This document shows positions 8,199 through 46,529 of a DNA stretch of 64,000 bases, piece by piece. How positions within the stretch are numbered: the stretch's first letter is position 1; each line of letters opens with the position of its first letter. This DNA is from a virus. Lineage: Duplodnaviria; Heunggongvirae; Uroviricota; Caudoviricetes. The DNA lies in the IMG/VR virus record IMGVR_UViG_3300045988_155182; one strand, written 5' to 3'. The notes below the pieces were generated by a model. That model had not been told where the DNA came from. It did no database searches and saw only the letters and a program-made list of their open reading frames with translations. Position numbers and translations under genes: made by a program.

Positions 8199-8681
8199 AT
8201 GGCGGTAGTTGTGAAAGCTGATTTGTCAAAAATCCCTTCTATTTCAGGAAATAACGGTTATTCACTTCGTTGTGAGGAAGTAAAGATAAACGGTGAGTCG
8301 GCATATTGCAGCTACTCCGTATGCCAGCACACCATTCTTGCCTTCAAAGAAAACCGTCTTCCTCGAACGTCTTTCCAGTCGTGCGCAACCGCTATTAAAG
8401 CAGGCAAATGCAAGGCGTTAAAAATGATGGTTGAAGAGATTCGTAAAGGAGAATCTCTGTATTTCGAAGATATGACCGCACTCATTAAGGAGGTTGAAGA
8501 ACGGAATAAACAAGCCAGAACTATAAAACGAAAACGTGACAGTGTAACGATTAATAGCATGGTTAAGAAGAGCGCCACATCACAAACAGCGATCACTGAC
8601 GTGTATGCGGCGTTGATTGAAGAAACAACAAAAGAAACACATGAGCAAATCGATCAACATATGGAGGCAAAACAACAATGA
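8199..8681 (+). CDS. Hypothetical protein
   Basis: 160 aa ORF; its stop overlaps the start of the ligase gene. Confidence 0.35.
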   Translation: MAVVVKADLSKIPSISGNNGYSLRCEEVKINGESAYCSYSVCQHTILAFKENRLPRTSFQSCATAIKAGKCKALKMMVEEIRKGESLYFEDMTALIKEVEERNKQARTIKRKRDSVTINSMVKKSATSQTAITDVYAALIEETTKETHEQIDQHMEAKQQ

Positions 8682-10000
8682 AAAAGTTGATCGCACTTAA
8701 GCATAAGCTGGACGAAATGAAAGCTATGGGAACCAATGCAAAAAAAGAGGCATTGGCCAACATGGATGACTTCGAGCAAAGCATGGTTTCATTGATGCTC
8801 AACCCTTTCATCCGTTTTGGGGTAAAGAAATACAAAGTGGCAGAGCCGCTTAGTGAGTCCGTCCCAAGTGACGAAAAAGCCATTGATATACTGAATAAGC
8901 TGGCCTCTCGCGAGCTGACGGGGAACGCAGCAATAGCTGCTGTTGAGTCTATCGTGGCGTCAATGTGCGCCGATGGGCAGGACGTGTTCCGTCGTTTCCT
9001 CTTAAAAGATCCGAAAGCTGGCGTTGGGATTAGCCTATGCAACAAGGTTTTTGAAAATCCCATTCCGAAATTTGAGGTGCAGCTGGCGTCACCGTATAAA
9101 GAAAAAGGCGACAAATACCCCTTCAAGCCAAATCCTAAAGCCAAATGGCCGATGATTGGCAGCCTTAAGCTCGATGGTTTGCGAGTAATTTGTGAGGTTA
9201 TTGTTGACGAGGAAGAGGTGAACTTCCTTTCTCGTACTGGTAATCCAATCACGTCTCTCGATCACCTAAAGCCAGCCATGCTCGAATTAGGCAAACTTTC
9301 AGGCCACAAACACATCTTCTTCGATGGTGAAGGAACAGCCGGTTCATTTAACCAGTCCGTATCTGCATTGCGCAAAAAGAACGTGCAGGCAATTGGCGCT
9401 ATTTATCATGTTTTCGACTTCTTCCTACCGGAATGGCGGGCACAGGCTAAATCCAAAGAGTATGCAAAGACAGGTATAAAGCTGAAAGAGCGCCTGGCTA
9501 TGCTCGTGGCGTTGTTCAAAAACGATCGCAGTGAAGGCTACGCACAAGACATTCACCTGCATCCGTTCTACATCATCCATAGCCACGAAGACTTCATCGA
9601 ACGCTTCATGAAACGCCTGGACGATAACGAAGAAGGGGAGATGGGCAAAGATCCGAACTCTGTTTACGAGTTTAAACGTACCCGCAGCTGGTGGAAGTTA
9701 AAAGACGAAGATTCAGAAGATGGTGAAATTATCGATTTTGAGCCTGGCGACCCGGACTCTGGTTTTGCCAACACGCTTGGAAAAATTGTTATTCGTCTTG
9801 AAAACGGCGTCATCGTTCGTGCGAGTGGCATTAAGCATAAATATCTGGACGAGATCTGGAACAACAAAGAGAAGTACCGTGGTCGTATTGTCGAGGTTCA
9901 TTGTCACGAGAAAACACCTGATGGCAGCTTACGCCACCCACGACTGAAATGGCCGCGTTGCTTACGCGATACCGAAGATCGAATCGGAGATAAAGAATGA
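8678..10000 (+). CDS. ATP-dependent DNA ligase
   Basis: Adenylation motif I KLDGLR (GSLKLDGLRVICEV); 440 aa. Confidence 0.7.
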   Translation: MKKLIALKHKLDEMKAMGTNAKKEALANMDDFEQSMVSLMLNPFIRFGVKKYKVAEPLSESVPSDEKAIDILNKLASRELTGNAAIAAVESIVASMCADGQDVFRRFLLKDPKAGVGISLCNKVFENPIPKFEVQLASPYKEKGDKYPFKPNPKAKWPMIGSLKLDGLRVICEVIVDEEEVNFLSRTGNPITSLDHLKPAMLELGKLSGHKHIFFDGEGTAGSFNQSVSALRKKNVQAIGAIYHVFDFFLPEWRAQAKSKEYAKTGIKLKERLAMLVALFKNDRSEGYAQDIHLHPFYIIHSHEDFIERFMKRLDDNEEGEMGKDPNSVYEFKRTRSWWKLKDEDSEDGEIIDFEPGDPDSGFANTLGKIVIRLENGVIVRASGIKHKYLDEIWNNKEKYRGRIVEVHCHEKTPDGSLRHPRLKWPRCLRDTEDRIGDKE

Positions 10001-39210: not shown

Positions 39211-41526
39211 ATGATAAGCATCGTAAAACGTAACGGCCAAACAGAGCCGTTATCCGAAGAAAAATACAACCGCGTCGTAATGTATGGCGTAGAAGGCATT
39301 CGTGGTGTAAGCGCATCCGCTGTAGCAATGGGAGCTGCGGCCAGCATTTTTGATGGGATTACCACCAGCCAGTTGCATGAGGCTTTGGTTAAATCTGCCG
39401 CTGATTTGATCTCACCAGAAGCACCAAATTACTCACAGGTGGCTGCCCGCCTGAACATTTTTAAAATCCGCAAAGATGCCTTCGGTCGTTACGACTATCC
39501 GAACTTCTACCAACACATTGTCAAGAACGTTAACAAGGGCGTTTATGACAAGGATTTGCTGACACATTATTCGTTTGAAGAGATCGAAGAACTCGGCAAT
39601 TACATTAAGCCGAAACGTGACGATCTTTTTGGCTATGCAGCTACGGTGCAGTTGCAAAGCAAATACCTCGTTCAAAACCGTGTTACTGGTGAGATTCATG
39701 AGGGGCCGCAACATATCTATATGCTGGTAGGCATGTGTCTGTTCCAGAATTGGGAAGACGACTGCGCTGGCAAAACACGTATGGAGATGGTCAAAGGTTT
39801 CTATGACGTTACAAGTACGTTCAAACTGTCTCTGCCCACACCAATCATGGCCGGCGTCCGTACTCCAACCCGTCAGTTCTCCAGTTGTGTGCTGATTGAG
39901 TCTGGCGATAGTCTGAAAGGGATTAGTGCAGCTTCAGCCGCAATTATCGACTACGTTTCACGTCGTGCTGGAATTGGTATTGGTTTTGGCCGTATCCGTG
40001 CGCTGGGCAGCGAGATCCGCAATGGTGAAGCCACCCATACCGGAGTTATTCCATTCCTGAAGCATTTCCAGACGGCTGTTAAATCTTGTTCGCAAGGTGG
40101 TGTTCGTGGTGGCGCAGCAACAGCGTTTTACCCGATCTGGCATCTTGAAGTTGAAAGTCTGCTGGTGGTGAAAAATAACCGTGGTATTGATGAAAACCGC
40201 GTTCGCCATCTTGATTACGGCGTCATGAGTAACCGTCTAATGTACCGTCGACTCGTCAGAAGCGAGAACATCACTCTGTTCAGCCCGCATGATGTGCCTG
40301 ATATGTACGAAGCCTTCTTCACAGACCAGGAGCTGTTTGAAAAGCTGTACCATAAATACGAAGCCGATGATTCAATTCGCAAGAAGTCAGTACCTGCCAT
40401 TGAGCTGTTCTCATCTCTGATGCAGGAACGAGCGTCCACGGGCCGAATTTATATTGCGAACGTCGATCATATTAACGAGCATGGCGCTTTCATTCCTGCT
40501 CTTGCACCTGTTCGCCAGTCAAACCTGTGCATGGAGATCACTCTACCCACTCGTCCACTGGCATTTACCGACGACCCGAACGGTGAGATCGCGCTATGCA
40601 CTTTATCCGCTTTTAACCTCGGAGCCATCCGTTCACTGGAGTCTCTTAAAGAGGTGGCGTTCTATGCCGTTGCTGCACTGGATTCGTTACTGGATTATCA
40701 AGACTATCCGATGGAGGCAGCCGAAGTGCCTGCCAAAGCTCGTCGTAGCTTGGGAATTGGTGTAACCAACTTTGCTTATTACCTGGCAAAGAATGGCGTT
40801 CGTTATTCTGATACCGCTGGCAATAAACTGGTGCATGAAACGTTCGAAGCTATCCAGTATTACCTTCTTGATGCCAGCTGCCGACTTGCTGAAGCAAAAG
40901 GTGAGTGTGACTGGTTTGAGCAGACCAAGTACGCAATTGGTCAGTTGCCGATCGACCATTACCGTTCTTCATTAGACGAAAGTGGCGAAACCAACTTTGA
41001 GTTAAAGATGCCGTGGGAAGAACTGCGTGAACGTATTGCAAAATACGGCCTTCGCAACTCCACACTGACGGCACAAATGCCATGCGAGACTTCCAGCCAG
41101 ATCACTAATTCCACCAACGGCATCGAACCGCCTCGTGGCCCGGTGTCGGTGAAATCTTCTAAGGACGGCATCGTTAAGATGGTCGTGCCTGAGTTTGAAA
41201 AACTGAAGGAACAGTATGAATACCTGTGGGATATGCCGGACAACCGCGGCTATCTGACAAAGGTGGCGATCATCCAGAAGTTCTTTGACCAGGCTATTTC
41301 AGCCAATACCAACTATGACCCTTCTCGCTTTGAAGGCGATAAAGTCCCAATGATGACGCTACTGTCAGATTTGCTTCTCGCCTACAAGATGGGAGTTAAA
41401 ACGCTTTACTACCACAACACCAGAGATGGGGCAGGAAAGCGTGATGACGACGAACCGCAGAATCCACTGACGCAAGCTGTAGCCGTCGAGCCAGAAGATG
41501 AGTGCGACGGAGCCTGCAAAATCTGA
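39211..41526 (+). CDS. nrdA: Ribonucleotide reductase class Ia alpha subunit
   Basis: 771 aa; active-site region NLCMEITLP and C-terminal Cys pair (CDGACKI); adjacent nrdB. Confidence 0.9.
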   Translation: MISIVKRNGQTEPLSEEKYNRVVMYGVEGIRGVSASAVAMGAAASIFDGITTSQLHEALVKSAADLISPEAPNYSQVAARLNIFKIRKDAFGRYDYPNFYQHIVKNVNKGVYDKDLLTHYSFEEIEELGNYIKPKRDDLFGYAATVQLQSKYLVQNRVTGEIHEGPQHIYMLVGMCLFQNWEDDCAGKTRMEMVKGFYDVTSTFKLSLPTPIMAGVRTPTRQFSSCVLIESGDSLKGISAASAAIIDYVSRRAGIGIGFGRIRALGSEIRNGEATHTGVIPFLKHFQTAVKSCSQGGVRGGAATAFYPIWHLEVESLLVVKNNRGIDENRVRHLDYGVMSNRLMYRRLVRSENITLFSPHDVPDMYEAFFTDQELFEKLYHKYEADDSIRKKSVPAIELFSSLMQERASTGRIYIANVDHINEHGAFIPALAPVRQSNLCMEITLPTRPLAFTDDPNGEIALCTLSAFNLGAIRSLESLKEVAFYAVAALDSLLDYQDYPMEAAEVPAKARRSLGIGVTNFAYYLAKNGVRYSDTAGNKLVHETFEAIQYYLLDASCRLAEAKGECDWFEQTKYAIGQLPIDHYRSSLDESGETNFELKMPWEELRERIAKYGLRNSTLTAQMPCETSSQITNSTNGIEPPRGPVSVKSSKDGIVKMVVPEFEKLKEQYEYLWDMPDNRGYLTKVAIIQKFFDQAISANTNYDPSRFEGDKVPMMTLLSDLLLAYKMGVKTLYYHNTRDGAGKRDDDEPQNPLTQAVAVEPEDECDGACKI

Positions 41527-41632: not shown

Positions 41633-42775
41633 ATGTCATATTCAACGTTCCGTTTGGGTGCTAATGATGCAACCAAAGAGCCTATGTTCCTCGGACAATC
41701 TGTCAACGTGGCACGTTACGATCAGCAAAAATACCGTGATTTTGAAAAGTTGATTGAACGTCAATTGTCTTTCTTCTGGCGGCCGGAAGAAGTTGATATT
41801 TCGAGCGATCGTATCGACTTCAACACGAAGCTGCGGGACCACGAACGTCACATTTTTCTGAGCAATCTCCGTTATCAAACGTTACTCGATTCAGTTCAGG
41901 GACGTAGTCCAAATGCAACGCTGCTGCCGCTTATCTCTATTCCTGAACTGGAAACGTGGGTTGAAACGTGGTCTTTCTCTGAGACTATCCATAGCCGCAG
42001 CTACACCCACATTATTCGTGGCATGGTGGACGATCCGAGCATTGTTTTTGACGGTATTGTTACGGATGAAGAAATCATCAACCGAGCGATCAGTATCTCT
42101 GCTGAATATGACAGGCTTTATGGGATGACCTGCGAGCGCCAGTCGTTAGGTGAGAAGGAGTTTGAACGTCTGTACGTAAATGAATATGGCTGGGAGCCAT
42201 ACCCTTTGCACCGTCAGCTTTTCCGCACGTTGGTGTCCATTAATGCGCTTGAGGCGATCCGTTTCTATGTAAGTTTTGCATGTACGTTTGCCTTTGGCGA
42301 ACGGAAGTTGCTTGAGGGTAACACCAAAATTATGCGCTTTATTGCCCGTGATGAAGCTCTGCATTGCGAAGGAACTGAACGCATGATCCGCTTCATGCGT
42401 ACCGGTCGCGAAGGTTTATTGTGGAAAGAGATTGCTGCTGATGAAGAAAACGTCATTTACGACACCATGAAATCAGTCGCCGAACAAGAAATGAACTGGG
42501 CAGACTATCTCTTCAAAGACGGTTCGATGATTGGTTTAAACGCGGATATTCTCAAAACCTATGTAAAATACCGCACCAATCTGGCTATGAATCGTCTTGG
42601 CCTGAAGGCTTTATTTCCAGAGGTTACCACCGATCCGCTGGTCTGGATGAACAAGTGGTTGTTAACCGACACACTGCAAATTGCACCACAAGAGGCAGAG
42701 CAAAGCACATATCTGGTAGGTCAGATCGATTCTACCGTGGATAAGGCTTCTCTAAGCCAGTTTGCTGACCTGTAA
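41633..42775 (+). CDS. nrdB: Ribonucleotide reductase class Ia beta subunit
   Basis: 380 aa; near-colinear with E. coli NrdB ([53 protein letters not shown]). Confidence 0.9.
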
Positions 42776-42852: not shown

Positions 42853-43722
42853 ATGAACTTTACCAAACTGACTGACCACCTGAAACTTGCCACCGATCGA
42901 CTCATTGGATTTAAGCCAGAACCATATGAGTTGCATGAAGGTCATGGTGTAGCTACTGAAAGTATTTACAAGATGGTCGATCAGTTTCATGAACTCTTCC
43001 AGCATCCGAGACGCGTTATGCCGACACCAGAGCTGCTTCGTCTCCGTGCAAGCCTGATTCATGAAGAAGCTGTAGTGGAAGGTATTCCAGCCGCAATGAA
43101 TGGGGATATTGAGCAACTGCTGGATGCAATGGCCGACTTTTTATACGTTGGTGTTGGTACGATGGTCGCCATCAAAGGTGGTATTTCTACCGGCATGACC
43201 TATTACACGCAGGAACAGAGCATTGATCGCTTTATGCAGACAATTTTTGTGCCTGGTAACACTGTTTTCGATGATATGGCAATGCCATTTCAGGAAGCTC
43301 GTGAGGCGTCATGTATGCTCGAAGAGCTGGCAGATAAACTTGAGAACAAGACTGTTAAGGATTCTGAGCTGATTCAGGAACTGCGCCGTGTCATGAACAA
43401 AATCTATGTGGCGTGCATGATGACCTATCGACTGGCTGATTTCCTCGGTATCAATGTAGTCGAGCTGGTTGGCGAAATTCATCGGTCTAACATGACAAAA
43501 TTATGGCCTGCTGATGTTGAGGAACGTCGCCAGGCTGTGGCCAACTGCAAATACGACTCTTCAGATCTGGGATTCCGCCATGCTGATGGCACCGATAAGA
43601 TGATCGGTTTTCGAATTTCCGATGGAAAGATTCTGAAGTCTCCAACCTATAGTGATGTCGATTTATCCTCCTTTGTTGAGCAAGCTAAAGCCTCAGCAAT
43701 GTACGGAATGATCAAAAAATAA
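42853..43722 (+). CDS. Hypothetical protein, possibly a MazG-like all-alpha NTP pyrophosphohydrolase
   Basis: EE..VEG.......EQLLDAMADFLYV resembles MazG/HisE helices; weak. Confidence 0.3.
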   Translation: MNFTKLTDHLKLATDRLIGFKPEPYELHEGHGVATESIYKMVDQFHELFQHPRRVMPTPELLRLRASLIHEEAVVEGIPAAMNGDIEQLLDAMADFLYVGVGTMVAIKGGISTGMTYYTQEQSIDRFMQTIFVPGNTVFDDMAMPFQEAREASCMLEELADKLENKTVKDSELIQELRRVMNKIYVACMMTYRLADFLGINVVELVGEIHRSNMTKLWPADVEERRQAVANCKYDSSDLGFRHADGTDKMIGFRISDGKILKSPTYSDVDLSSFVEQAKASAMYGMIKK

Positions 43723-43791
43723 TTGTAGGTAGTTATCTATCTGTGTATATTGCGTTGGCGCGTTAAATTTCTGAAACAACTATTCGTTTTT

Positions 43792-43818
43792 GGTGGCCTA
43801 TGGCCACCATTTTTTTAT
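43792..43818 (+). terminator. Rho-independent terminator
   Basis: ggtggcc tat ggccacc followed by atttttttat. Confidence 0.65.
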
Positions 43819-43893
43819 CTGTCTGGTCTTGTTCTCTCAATAAATGTAAACTCACGCAATGAATAAGTGGTTACTTATCTTTGTGAGGTTTTT

Positions 43894-44997
43894 GTGTCAC
43901 TCCTTTTGAATCGTGAGCATACGAACGGTCAGGTAACAAACGCATCGTATGCAAAAGTTATTGAGACGGTGCTTAAAAGCGGCGTGCAGGCTGATGATCG
44001 CACAGGCACTGGTACTTTAAGCACCTGCTACGTTCCCTCTTACTACATGCTTACTGGTGGGACTGTGCCGCTTATTTCTGGAAAGGCGGTAAATCTTAAG
44101 CCACTGCTTGTCGAACTTGAGTGGTATCTGAAAGGCACGGGCAACATCCAATTTCTCAAGGATAACGGCGTTAAGATTTGGGATGCATGGGCCGATGAGA
44201 ATGGCGATTTGGGGCCGGTTTACGGTAAGCAGTGGCGTCGATGGGAAGATACCCGCATCGTGAGCCATAGTGAATATCTGAGCAAGATCGCTACTTTCCG
44301 TGAACGCGGGTACAAAGTCGAGGGATACCTGGGTATCAGTGAAGATCGCGTAGTGCTGTCCCGTGAAATCGATCAGCTACAGCGTATTGTCGATACACTG
44401 CGCACGAACCCTACCGATCGTCGCATCATGCTTAACGCATGGAACGTAGGCGAGCTTGAGGATATGAAACTGCCACCTTGCCACTTTGTCTTCTCTTTGT
44501 GGAGTCGTGAGCTGGATTTTGAAACCCGTTTAACGATGGCAACTGACATTGGTCTTCAACACAGTCGCCTCGGTTACGAGTCTATCTACACCAAGATGCT
44601 ATACGATCTGGAGATGGACGGCAGTGTTACTGAAGCTGAACTGGATGAACTTGGAATCCCCAAACGCATCCTCAACTCCTGCCTCGTACAGCGTAGCGTA
44701 GACACTTTTGTTGGTATGCCATTCAATATTGCTGGCTATGGCATTCTCACTCATTTTCTCGCGAAGATTACGGGTCACATGGCCGGTGCATTTGTGCATT
44801 TTGGCTTTGACGTGCATTTGTACAACAACCACATGGAAGGTGTGTGTGAGCTAATGAAACGACAGGCTCCAGAGCATTCAGATCCGGTCGTTATTTTCCC
44901 TCATGAATGGTCAGAGTTGGATGATTTCAAATGGGACGAGGTTTTAATTCTTGGCTATGACCCTCTATCGTGGATCAAGGTTCCAGTGGCGGTGTGA
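43894..44997 (+). CDS. Thymidylate synthase (ThyA) family enzyme with two internal insertions
   Basis: DRTGTGT, WADENGDLGPVYGKQWRRW, RRIMLNAWNVGELEDMKLPPCH and QRSVD...GMPFNIAGY match ThyA motifs; about 50-aa inserts interrupt the alignment; start uncertain (GTG at 43894 after GAGG; track start 43867 is also GTG). Confidence 0.8.
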   Translation: MSLLLNREHTNGQVTNASYAKVIETVLKSGVQADDRTGTGTLSTCYVPSYYMLTGGTVPLISGKAVNLKPLLVELEWYLKGTGNIQFLKDNGVKIWDAWADENGDLGPVYGKQWRRWEDTRIVSHSEYLSKIATFRERGYKVEGYLGISEDRVVLSREIDQLQRIVDTLRTNPTDRRIMLNAWNVGELEDMKLPPCHFVFSLWSRELDFETRLTMATDIGLQHSRLGYESIYTKMLYDLEMDGSVTEAELDELGIPKRILNSCLVQRSVDTFVGMPFNIAGYGILTHFLAKITGHMAGAFVHFGFDVHLYNNHMEGVCELMKRQAPEHSDPVVIFPHEWSELDDFKWDEVLILGYDPLSWIKVPVAV

Positions 44998-44998
44998 T

Positions 44999-45412
44999 AT
45001 GGCAAGAGGTATGTATGTCTTATGCGAAATTGAAGGTGTGCTGGCAAATGCCAGCCATCGTAAATCAGTATCTGACGCGGATGCAGGCCAGCTCATTGCC
45101 GGTGATGAACTCATTTTCCCCACCAGCCGTATGTTGCGTGGTTTTGCTCGCTCAGGGGCTGAAGTGGTGCTTATCAGTAGCCGCTCTGAAACTCTTGAAG
45201 CGCCAACTAAACGATGGCTGAAAGATTTTGGCGTTGATTATGACTGGCTTCATCTCGTACCGAATGGCACCAGTTATGAGAAGCATATTAAGCGCACATT
45301 AGCGGAGCATAAAGGCGATCTGCTTATCGCTGCGCTGGTGCACGATCCTCGACTCCGTGCCGCTTTAGCCGACTCTCACCATCGACCGGTCATCTATGAG
45401 GTGAGCAAATGA
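44999..45412 (+). CDS. Hypothetical protein (possible HAD-like nucleotidase; weak)
   Basis: ATG immediately after the ThyA stop; 137 aa. Confidence 0.3.
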   Translation: MARGMYVLCEIEGVLANASHRKSVSDADAGQLIAGDELIFPTSRMLRGFARSGAEVVLISSRSETLEAPTKRWLKDFGVDYDWLHLVPNGTSYEKHIKRTLAEHKGDLLIAALVHDPRLRAALADSHHRPVIYEVSK

Positions 45413-45885
45413 AGATGATCGCTGCTGTTGGCCGTAACTATGAGATCGGCATAGCGAATGAACTCCCCTGGCGTTGTTCTACCGATCTGAAGCTATTTAA
45501 GAGACTCACCAAAAACGCCACTGTCGTTATGGGGCGTAAAACGATGGAAAGTCTCAAACGCCCTCTTCCAGAGCGTCATAACCTCGTTTTGACGCGCTCT
45601 CATGGCTTTGTACCAAATGGATTCTACCCTGCTGGTGTGGATGATGTGTTGCGATTACCAGAGCCTGTGTGGGTGATTGGCGGGGAACAAATTTACTCGC
45701 TATTCATGCCGCATGTTGAAGAGATTTGGCTCTCCCACATCGGCGTTGATGTGCCAAACGCCGATGCATTCTTCCCGGCAAGCATGATGCGTAATTTAGG
45801 CTTTGTGCCTGTTGAAACAGCTTATACCCAACGAGCCAGCGAGGAAGAGCCTGGCTTTTCGCAGATCGTATACAGAAGGTCGTAA
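45409..45885 (+). CDS. Dihydrofolate reductase
   Basis: IAAVGRNYEIGIANELPW...VVMGRKTMESLKRPLPER...VIGGEQIY pattern of FolA/T4 Frd. Confidence 0.8.
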   Translation: MKMIAAVGRNYEIGIANELPWRCSTDLKLFKRLTKNATVVMGRKTMESLKRPLPERHNLVLTRSHGFVPNGFYPAGVDDVLRLPEPVWVIGGEQIYSLFMPHVEEIWLSHIGVDVPNADAFFPASMMRNLGFVPVETAYTQRASEEEPGFSQIVYRRS

Positions 45886-46529
45886 TGGATTACCGGATTG
45901 GGATCACTGGTGCTCAGGGCAGTGGGAAAACAACCCTGGCTAAATATATCGACAAACATTACGGAATCCCTTACGTGGATGCTGGTGTCGGAAGTTTGAT
46001 GAGCCGCCTCGGTGTTCGAGTAGGTGATTCTATGCCTCTATATGAGCGGCTTCAGATTCAAATGGAAATAGCAAAGCATATAGAGCTACTTACGCGTGGT
46101 GTTGAAGGCTTTGTTATCGATCGCACACCTGCTGATGTTATGGCCTACACGTTGGATTTGGTCGGCCATACAAATGAAGATCGGTGTATTGAGTTAGCCC
46201 TCGATATCGAAAAGTTTTGCCACAAAACTGCTATTTCAAACTTTAACGCCATTGCTGGCTTACGCCCGGGAGTCGCTCTCTCAGAGCGAGATTACTTGCG
46301 ATCACAACGAGCATCATTAGACCGTCTGTATGTCGCTCGTATTGATGCGTTGATGTGCGGGGAACTGACAAAAATTCACCTGCATCCGCAAAGGGGAGAT
46401 CTGCAAACCTTCGTCGTTTCCAACCGATATCGCACGGTTGAAGCAAGAGCCAGATCAGTAATGAGAATGCTAGATAACGCTGTAGAAAAGATAGAAAACC
46501 GGTTCTGTGGCCGAGTGACCGTTCATTAG
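45885..46529 (+). CDS. P-loop nucleotide/nucleoside kinase (dNMP-kinase-like)
   Basis: Walker A GITGAQGSGKTT at the N-terminus; sits in the nucleotide-metabolism block. Confidence 0.5.
   Translation: MDYRIGITGAQGSGKTTLAKYIDKHYGIPYVDAGVGSLMSRLGVRVGDSMPLYERLQIQMEIAKHIELLTRGVEGFVIDRTPADVMAYTLDLVGHTNEDRCIELALDIEKFCHKTAISNFNAIAGLRPGVALSERDYLRSQRASLDRLYVARIDALMCGELTKIHLHPQRGDLQTFVVSNRYRTVEARARSVMRMLDNAVEKIENRFCGRVTVH

Follow-up and report, generated by a model that had tools for sequence, protein, structure and literature searches.

Does a thymidylate synthase (TS) homolog that carries two sizeable internal inserts still make dTMP? The question is raised by a gene on the plus strand of a 64,000-nt stretch of DNA, referred to here as the window, from a virus of the class Caudoviricetes (IMG/VR record IMGVR_UViG_3300045988_155182). 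The initial annotation suggested that its product might be a variant with altered chemistry, of the kind found in the hydroxymethylases used for DNA hypermodification, or with altered regulation. From the analysis described here, the gene very probably encodes a canonical folate-dependent ThyA (EC 2.1.1.45) of an SSU5-like phage-plasmid, acting together with a phage-encoded dihydrofolate reductase (DHFR), with inserts that would leave the chemistry unchanged but may act in regulation or in docking to other proteins.

The thyA coding sequence (43894..44997; 1,104 nt, 367 aa) has a GTG start and a stop codon at 44995-44997, and the same coding sequence is annotated in Escherichia phage Cyrano and Salmonella phage SSU5, both of which belong to the SSU5 group of phage-plasmids. 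DNA identity over the thyA region is 99.6% with Cyrano and 77.7% with SSU5, in which the start codon is TTG rather than GTG. A GAGG ribosome-binding site, seen in the sequence itself, lies 5 nt before the GTG (43885..43888, plus strand). Between a mazG-like gene and thyA there is a terminator-like element on the same strand (43791..43816), a consensus match only, in which a hairpin (43791-43809; 8-bp stem with 6 GC pairs) is followed by a run of seven T residues. Three genes of nucleotide metabolism lie upstream, all on the plus strand: nrdA (39211-41526), nrdB (41633-42775), and the mazG-like pyrophosphohydrolase gene (42853-43722). Downstream, again on the plus strand, a gene for a HAD/PNKP-phosphatase-like protein of 137 aa (44999..45412) begins 1 nt past the thyA stop codon and separates thyA from frd (45409..45885), and a P-loop AAA_28/nucleotide-kinase-like gene (45885..46529) overlaps the frd stop codon, so that neighbors in the string of thyA, HAD, frd, and kinase-like genes are separated by 1-nt gaps or overlap. 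As the initial annotation had noted, the gene two positions downstream of thyA encodes a DHFR (PF00186, E = 1.6e-34); it is of the DfrA51 type (NF047324, 338 bits; cut-off, 322).

The order nrdAB-mazG-thyA-HAD-frd-kinase is kept in a Photobacterium element whose ThyA is 53% identical to the window protein; a counterpart of the HAD-like gene is likewise placed there between thyA and frd, and gene order is the same from sbcCD to an exonuclease. The gene at 43894-44997 is carried by an SSU5-like phage-plasmid, and by annotation it has been known as a thymidylate synthase gene since the SSU5 genome was deposited. The mazG-like, HAD phosphatase-like, and kinase-like neighbors superficially resemble the dTTPase/dTMPase/hmdUMP-kinase set of 5-hmdU phages, a resemblance that speaks against a plain thymidylate synthase. 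Expression in E. coli of the DfrA51 from SSU5 conferred resistance to trimethoprim, and this protein is hence an active DHFR (PMC12217456).

Profile and structure comparisons agreed on the family of the window protein. PF00303 matched it with an E value of 6.8e-78 (262 bits; threshold, 24.3), and so did the thymidylate synthase equivalog TIGR03284 (217 bits; cut-off, 108); the more specific PRK01827 equivalogs scored under their thresholds, presumably an effect of the inserts, which break the alignment into several pieces. A phmmer search of PDB sequences identified E. coli ThyA (E = 4e-59), and the phrog_160 profile ("thymidylate synthase") covered residues 2-367 in one stretch (E = 5e-94); the protein is a member of the insert-bearing phage ThyA clade, PHROG 160. 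With NF010393 (PRK13821), which represents the 323-aa Burkholderia/Pseudomonas type, the score was 138 bits against a cut-off of 576, short of membership in that type. An AlphaFold2 monomer model, obtained with a 59-sequence alignment, had a mean pLDDT of 93.8 and a pTM of 0.92, and Foldseek aligned it to E. coli TS with a TMt of 0.94. In the Cyrano record (OV696614) the protein is labeled ThyX (PF02511); only PF00303 matches, and the fold is that of ThyA, which makes the label a misannotation.

The protein shares its fold, and ∼45% identity over the aligned core, with E. coli ThyA (264 aa; PDB 2TSC, 1TJS, and others), and the two align in three blocks: residues 18-118, 156-203, and 261-367 of the window protein correspond to E. 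coli residues 3-102, 106-153, and 160-264. The family motifs listed in the initial annotation, DRTGTGT, PPCH, QRSVD, and PFNIAGY, are all found, and its estimate of about 100 additional residues in two internal inserts was close, the excess being 103 aa: 15 at the N terminus, 34 in insert 1, 51 in insert 2, and 3 elsewhere. E. coli ThyA lacks all three of the named segments. The N-terminal extension (residues 1-17; 43894..43944, plus strand) has no E. coli counterpart and is poorly conserved, with a pLDDT below 50 for residues 1-5. Insert 1 (residues 119-155; 44248..44358, plus strand) follows the equivalent of Trp101/Pro102 and replaces E. coli residues 103-105, and the NF010393 profile aligns straight through it. 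The string first proposed for this insert extends slightly too far: a few of its residues belong to a conserved helix (REIDQLQ, equivalent to RHIDQIT in E. coli). Insert 2 (residues 204-260; 44503..44673, plus strand) replaces E. coli residues 154-159 and is set into the corresponding β-hairpin. By alignment, the catalytic cysteine is Cys196 (E. coli Cys146), in the PPCH motif, with its codon at 44479..44481 on the plus strand. The C-terminal tail, IKVPVAV (IKAPVAI in E. coli; 44974..44994, plus strand), ends in register with that of E. coli ThyA, where it serves as a seal of the folate site (PMC6400193).

Published comparisons indicate where a change in chemistry should be visible. The positions that best discriminate TS from its cytosine-modifying homologs are 177 and 147 (E. 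coli numbering), and a role for N177 has been described (PMC8670742). Closure of the folate site by W83, L143, and the C-terminal tail (I258-A263) leads to hydride transfer rather than hydration, and the tail is absent from dCH; moreover, TS makes dihydrofolate and needs DHFR, whereas dCH and the hydroxymethylases do not (PMC6400193). In the window protein, all catalytic, dUMP-binding, and folate-binding residues of E. coli ThyA are conserved. R21, E58, W80, W83, Y94, R126, R127, L143, C146, and H147 are present as R36, E74, W96, W99, Y110, R176, R177, L193, C196, and H197, and Q165, R166, S167, D169, N177, D205, H207, and Y209 are present as Q266, R267, S268, D270, N278, D306, H308, and Y310. 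The catalytic cysteine and the Glu58/Tyr94/His147 proton-transfer network (C196, E74, Y110, and H197) are invariant in the 59-sequence alignment, and the phosphate-binding arginines R21, R166, R126', and R127' are kept as R36, R267, R176, and R177, as is the uracil-specificity residue Asn177 as N278. The features of a sealed folate site (W96, W99, L193, D270, and the tail IKVPVAV-COOH) are all in place. W83 is not strictly invariant among true TSs, being Asn in human TS and in Burkholderia TS; the window protein has Trp at this position.

Two phage hydroxymethylases of experimentally established function were used as references, T4 gp42 (with a sequence identical to that of PDB 1B49) and SPO1 gp29 (from NC_011421). 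The dCMP hydroxymethylase gp42 (PDB 1B49, 1B5E, and 6A9A) carries the changes N177D and H147T and has no tail, whereas the window protein has Asn278, His197, and a full tail; gp42 also lacks inserts and yields THF as the cofactor product. By these features, the window protein does not fit a dCMP hydroxymethylase of the gp42 type. The dUMP hydroxymethylase gp29 (383 aa) is a phage ThyA homolog of similar length that keeps Asn177, Cys146, and Tyr94, but W80 is missing, the changes H147N, R127Q, Q165N, and F176A are present, and there is no PVAI-type tail, and its extra length is an unrelated 100-residue C terminus rather than internal inserts. With the equivalents of Trp80 and His147 and the C-terminal seal all retained in the window protein, a dUMP hydroxymethylase of the gp29 type is likewise rejected. 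Pairwise BLASTP of the window protein gave E values of 0.023 against gp29 and 5e-5 against gp42. The annotation of 100 of the 108 kb of the Cyrano genome contains no 5-HMUDK/5-hmdU kinase, aGPT-Pplase, glycosyltransferase, or second ThyA homolog.

Taken at the level of sequence, these comparisons indicate that the enzyme is an ordinary thymidylate synthase that converts dUMP to dTMP, and nothing points to new chemistry. In silico, its active-site residues are identical to those of canonical ThyA, one part of what the initial annotation itself had named as counting against altered chemistry. The notion that the inserts mark a hydroxymethylase-like enzyme finds no support in the TS-type identity of every discriminating residue, in the presence of insert 1 in a solved cellular TS, or in the frequency of insert 2 in phage ThyAs (see below), and no hypermodification genes are listed in the annotation of 100 of the 108 kb of the near-identical Cyrano genome. 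Catalysis would begin with attack of Cys196 on C6 of dUMP, and 5,10-CH2-THF would donate the methylene group; within the sealed, Trp-lined folate pocket closed by the C-terminal tail, hydride transfer would then yield dTMP and dihydrofolate. The latter would be re-reduced by the DfrA51-type DHFR encoded in the same tightly packed thyA-HAD-frd-kinase string, and together with NrdAB the two enzymes would raise the dTTP supply of the element during replication. Both the catalytic activity and its coupling to DHFR are what we infer for the enzyme; the functional DHFR encoded downstream speaks indirectly for dTMP formation.

Both inserts are predicted with confidence (pLDDT mostly above 90; means of 10-residue blocks, 86-98), and neither matches any Pfam domain. 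Insert 1 forms a predicted α/β subdomain, consisting of a strand (residues 117-124), two helices (125-130 and 132-137), and two further strands (141-146 and 152-159). It is homologous to residues 109-169 of the Burkholderia thailandensis TS 3V8H (E = 6e-5), so that it belongs to the known architecture of one subfamily of cellular ThyAs, the Burkholderia/Pseudomonas type. The B. thailandensis enzyme (323 aa, NF010393/PRK13821 type) shares insert 1 with the window protein but lacks insert 2, and overall identity is 28%; the gene that encodes it is putatively essential (PMC3561365). Insert 1 occurs as two divergent alleles within proteins that are otherwise 91-95% identical.

Insert 2 is predicted to form three helices (residues 209-225, 231-242, and 247-253), and a structure search found no counterpart in solved TS structures. 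Its base (S-R-E...R212 ... L-D..I-P-K-R-I-L) is conserved, and its tip is hypervariable. In a 43-sequence alignment, 42 sequences bear the insert, and every one of them has R212 and P256, with L260, R258, and D251 conserved at 98%, 90%, and 88%, respectively. A wider set was made up of 131 retrieved ThyAs with an insert of at least 25 aa at this site; an arginine stands 16 residues after the catalytic cysteine (the position of Arg212) in 121 of them and a P-x-R/K motif precedes strand iv in 101, while the middle of the insert ranges from 26 to 84 aa. Literature searches for these inserts, or for the biochemistry of the SSU5/pHCM2 ThyA, found nothing specific, nor did they turn up enzymology or DNA-composition data on the window protein or on other ThyAs with insert 2, and the three-helix insert is, as far as those searches reached, undescribed.

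The position of insert 2 can be related to that of a residue studied in human TS. Trp203, which immediately precedes the insert, corresponds to Y153 of E. coli ThyA and to Y202 of human TS, and the human arginines R175 and R176, which are given to the dUMP site of the partner subunit, correspond to R176 and R177 of the window protein. Human Y202 lies at the perimeter of the monomer-monomer interface, beside R175; in crystal structures of the Y202C variant, the modified Cys202 contacts K47', T55', and D254', and the Y202 pocket takes up F59' of the partner (PMC9831607). Given the location of Y202, we place insert 2 at the edge of the dimer, where it most likely projects near the phosphate-binding loop of the partner. 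Judging from their positions, both inserts would be surface elements.

Both inserts are widely distributed. SSU5-like homologs from Escherichia, Salmonella, Klebsiella, Enterobacter, Raoultella, Morganella, Providencia, and Xenorhabdus, with 46-100% identity and encoded mostly on contigs of about 100 kb, all keep both inserts at a near-constant length. A tblastn search of 50,697 phage records found 409 that cover at least 80% of the query. After the SSU5 group, the next matches were to the jumbo phages SPN3US, Erwinia phages Machina, Huxley, and Wellington, and Cronobacter phage CR5, with 37-40% identity over 95-98% of the query. Their ThyAs have the inserts in common with the window protein, although some (457-471 aa) have a further large insertion before Tyr94; the jumbo phages are lytic, whereas the window element is a phage-plasmid, and the thyA of SPN3US lies without a recognizable DHFR gene alongside. 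Jumbo-phage ThyA models in BFVD aligned with a TMq of 0.82-0.86, versus 0.68 for TSs that have no inserts, and the ThyA of Pseudomonas phage 201phi2-1 (B3FJL1) also bears insert 2.

Insert 2 was also found in more than 100 metagenomic ThyA clusters. Among the best 150 representatives of 50%-identity clusters, drawn from 1.8 billion proteins, an insertion of at least 15 aa is present at site 2 in at least 82, at site 1 in at least 70, and at both sites in at least 35; these counts are lower bounds, given that the motif-spacing regular expressions miss many sequences. In some representatives, the insertion at site 1, or one ahead of Tyr94, is far larger, and across ThyAs the two sites are hot spots for insertions, which range in length from 0 to about 270 aa. 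A protein from Ectothiorhodospira has insert 2 only. A "chromosomal" ThyA match from Photobacterium was considered as a nonphage instance of insert 2, and its locus turned out to be the syntenic SSU5-like element. The wide occurrence of the inserts indicates that the architecture is typical of a very large, mainly phage and metagenomic ThyA clade and is thus not specific to this element.

Selection on the inserts was assessed by comparison of the window gene with that of SSU5, using pN and pS in place of dN/dS because synonymous sites are saturated. The pN values were 0.035 for insert 1, 0.125 for insert 2, and 0.009 to 0.082 for the core, with pS at 0.59-0.81. Both inserts are under purifying selection; across the family they evolve faster than the core, yet their length is kept.

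What, then, do the inserts do? We favor a role for insert 2 as a structural extension of the dimer interface over a docking or regulatory role: it would enlarge or stabilize the dimer edge next to Arg176 and Arg177, which reach the active site of the partner, although it may instead act as a docking surface. The best surviving alternative, which we hold tentatively and consider less likely, is that the inserts are a regulatory or docking module on a normal TS, altering kinetics or channeling and not the product. Arg212 and the P-x-R motif might contact the phosphate-binding loop of the partner or the polyglutamate tail of the folate, or the insert might tether DHFR, NrdAB, or the kinase, in the manner of the dNTP-synthetase complex proposed for T4. 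The persistence of the arginine and of P-x-R/K despite so variable a middle is consistent with such a module, as are the purifying selection on both inserts and their high pLDDT, the contacts that the human equivalent of Trp203 makes across the interface, and the two alleles of insert 1. Against it, the conserved arginine could be a plain structural salt bridge, Asp251 being its well-conserved potential partner, and insert 1 is present in free-living bacteria that have no phage complex. Docking of DHFR through insert 2 drew no support from synteny either: no Pfam-recognizable DHFR gene lies beside thyA in SPN3US or in two metagenomic loci, and SPN3US has both inserts, so that having insert 2 does not depend on a neighboring DHFR gene.

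The Td thymidylate synthase of T4 (286 aa), whose gene is likewise accompanied by frd and nrd genes in a phage genome, offers a comparison. Contacts within the dNTP-synthetase complex have been proposed for its surface insertions; they lie elsewhere, after Trp83 and near the C terminus, and Td is not known to have a three-helix hairpin insert. For insert 2 taken by itself, we likewise regard as doubtful a function as a device, found mainly in phage and metagenomic ThyAs, that might supply, for example, a fifth basic contact with the active-site entrance of the partner or with the polyglutamate tail of the folate, or else a surface on which other phage nucleotide enzymes dock. If so, these phage TSs would differ in kinetics, cooperativity, or channeling, and the product would still be dTMP.

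It is improbable that the inserts are neutral baggage left over from ancient insertions into tolerant loops and free of any selected role. Such an origin would suit the hot-spot character of both sites, the faster evolution of the inserts relative to the core, and the failure of either to match a Pfam domain, but it is at odds with strong purifying selection at a distance where synonymous sites are saturated, with a length maintained in SSU5-like elements even at about 46% identity, with the near-invariant residues within insert 2, and with the confident, compact folds predicted for both.

Least probable by far is a dUMP or dCMP hydroxymethylase, or other altered chemistry for DNA with modified pyrimidines, in which the inserts would let water into the active site, with dTTP depletion and phosphorylation of the modified nucleotide falling to the MazG, HAD, and kinase neighbors: ThyA-fold hydroxymethylases are known in phages, gp29 is long too, and the neighboring genes do resemble the accessory set of 5-hmdU phages, but Asn278 excludes dCMP specificity, His197, Trp96, Leu193, and the full tail are kept where validated hydroxymethylases have lost them, BLASTP similarity to gp29 and gp42 is slight, a functional DHFR, needed only if dihydrofolate is made, is translationally coupled downstream, the Cyrano annotation offers no 5-HMUDK, aGPT-Pplase, or glycosyltransferase in the 100 kb covered, insert 1 occurs in a bacterial TS from a putative essential gene, and the phage-plasmid also replicates as a plasmid on host nucleotide pools.

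The canonical thymidylate synthase that we favor has consequences for how related proteins are read. Length or inserts alone should not flag phage ThyA homologs as candidate DNA-hypermodification enzymes; the features that decide are N177, H147, W80, and the C-terminal tail, together with linkage to DHFR. A very large, mostly phage-borne ThyA clade bears a conserved three-helix insert, most likely at the dimer edge, that is absent from solved structures. The thyA of the window is genetically coupled to the gene for DfrA51, a trimethoprim-resistant DHFR that is spreading on SSU5-like phage-plasmids, and the TS-DfrA51 pair could affect the antifolate susceptibility of lysogens.

The thyA gene lies in a closely packed cluster on the plus strand. 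A strong terminator-like hairpin, with an 8-bp stem and a T7 run, is located 5′ of the gene (43791-43816), and thyA is followed by an HAD/PNKP-phosphatase-like gene, the dihydrofolate reductase (DHFR) gene frd, and a kinase-like gene, with either 1-nt spacing or overlaps of 1 to 4 nt between neighbors (44995-45888). This tight arrangement suggests that the four genes form one translationally coupled unit. The HAD/PNKP-phosphatase-like gene (44999-45412, plus strand) encodes a protein of 137 aa that belongs to PHROG 5387 and weakly matches Pnkp1 (PDB 4XRP); it could be a nucleotide phosphatase, and its position between thyA and frd is kept in a Photobacterium element (9076-9516 of that locus, L009). 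A gene for a 289-aa MazG-like protein is found at 42853-43722, also on the plus strand. Its PRA-PH/MazG domain covers residues 42 to 106 only, and Pfam gave no match for the remaining ∼180 residues. SPN3US also carries a similar "mazG" gene near thyA (8384-9325 of its locus, L010).

The DHFR, encoded two genes downstream of thyA (45409-45885, plus strand), is of the DfrA51 type, scoring 338 bits against the NCBIfam model NF047324, "trimethoprim-resistant dihydrofolate reductase DfrA51" (cutoff, 322 bits). The DfrA51 resistance gene was described in 2025, with SSU5-type phage-plasmids as its source; the linked thyA goes unmentioned in that paper (PMC12217456).

GenBank annotates the Escherichia phage Cyrano gene at OV696614.1 72630-73733 (6001-7104 of the retrieved locus, L001) as "ThyX Thymidylate synthase." We reject this flavin-dependent label, as the protein is a ThyA (PF00303).

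Comparison of the window protein with two other SSU5-like ThyAs, P0002 and P0005, gave 91 to 95% identity in the core blocks, falling to just 54% in insert 1 (44248-44358; residues 119 to 155). P0002 and P0005 have an alternative insert 1 sequence in common, which suggests either recombination or diversifying selection limited to the insert 1 surface subdomain. Many representatives of metagenomic ThyA clusters (P0136, P0147, P0178, P0183, P0187, P0241, and P0259, among others) carry insertions of 100 to 270 aa at the insert 1 site or of 60 to 230 aa before Tyr94. Possible identities for these insertions are inteins, fusions to homing endonucleases, or additional domains. At least three sites in ThyA are hot spots for insertion.

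The 320-aa ThyA of Ectothiorhodospira shaposhnikovii (P0157) has a 50-aa insert 2 without insert 1; its source is reported as a bacterial genome contig of 295 kb, and the gene may be the cell's own thyA or may belong to a prophage. Both inserts are present in P0040, a metagenomic ThyA of 348 aa (145-1191 of locus L008), whose first core block, as judged by eye, is strikingly similar to that of E. coli. This combination in P0040 hints that ThyA lineages can acquire or lose the inserts or exchange them with one another.
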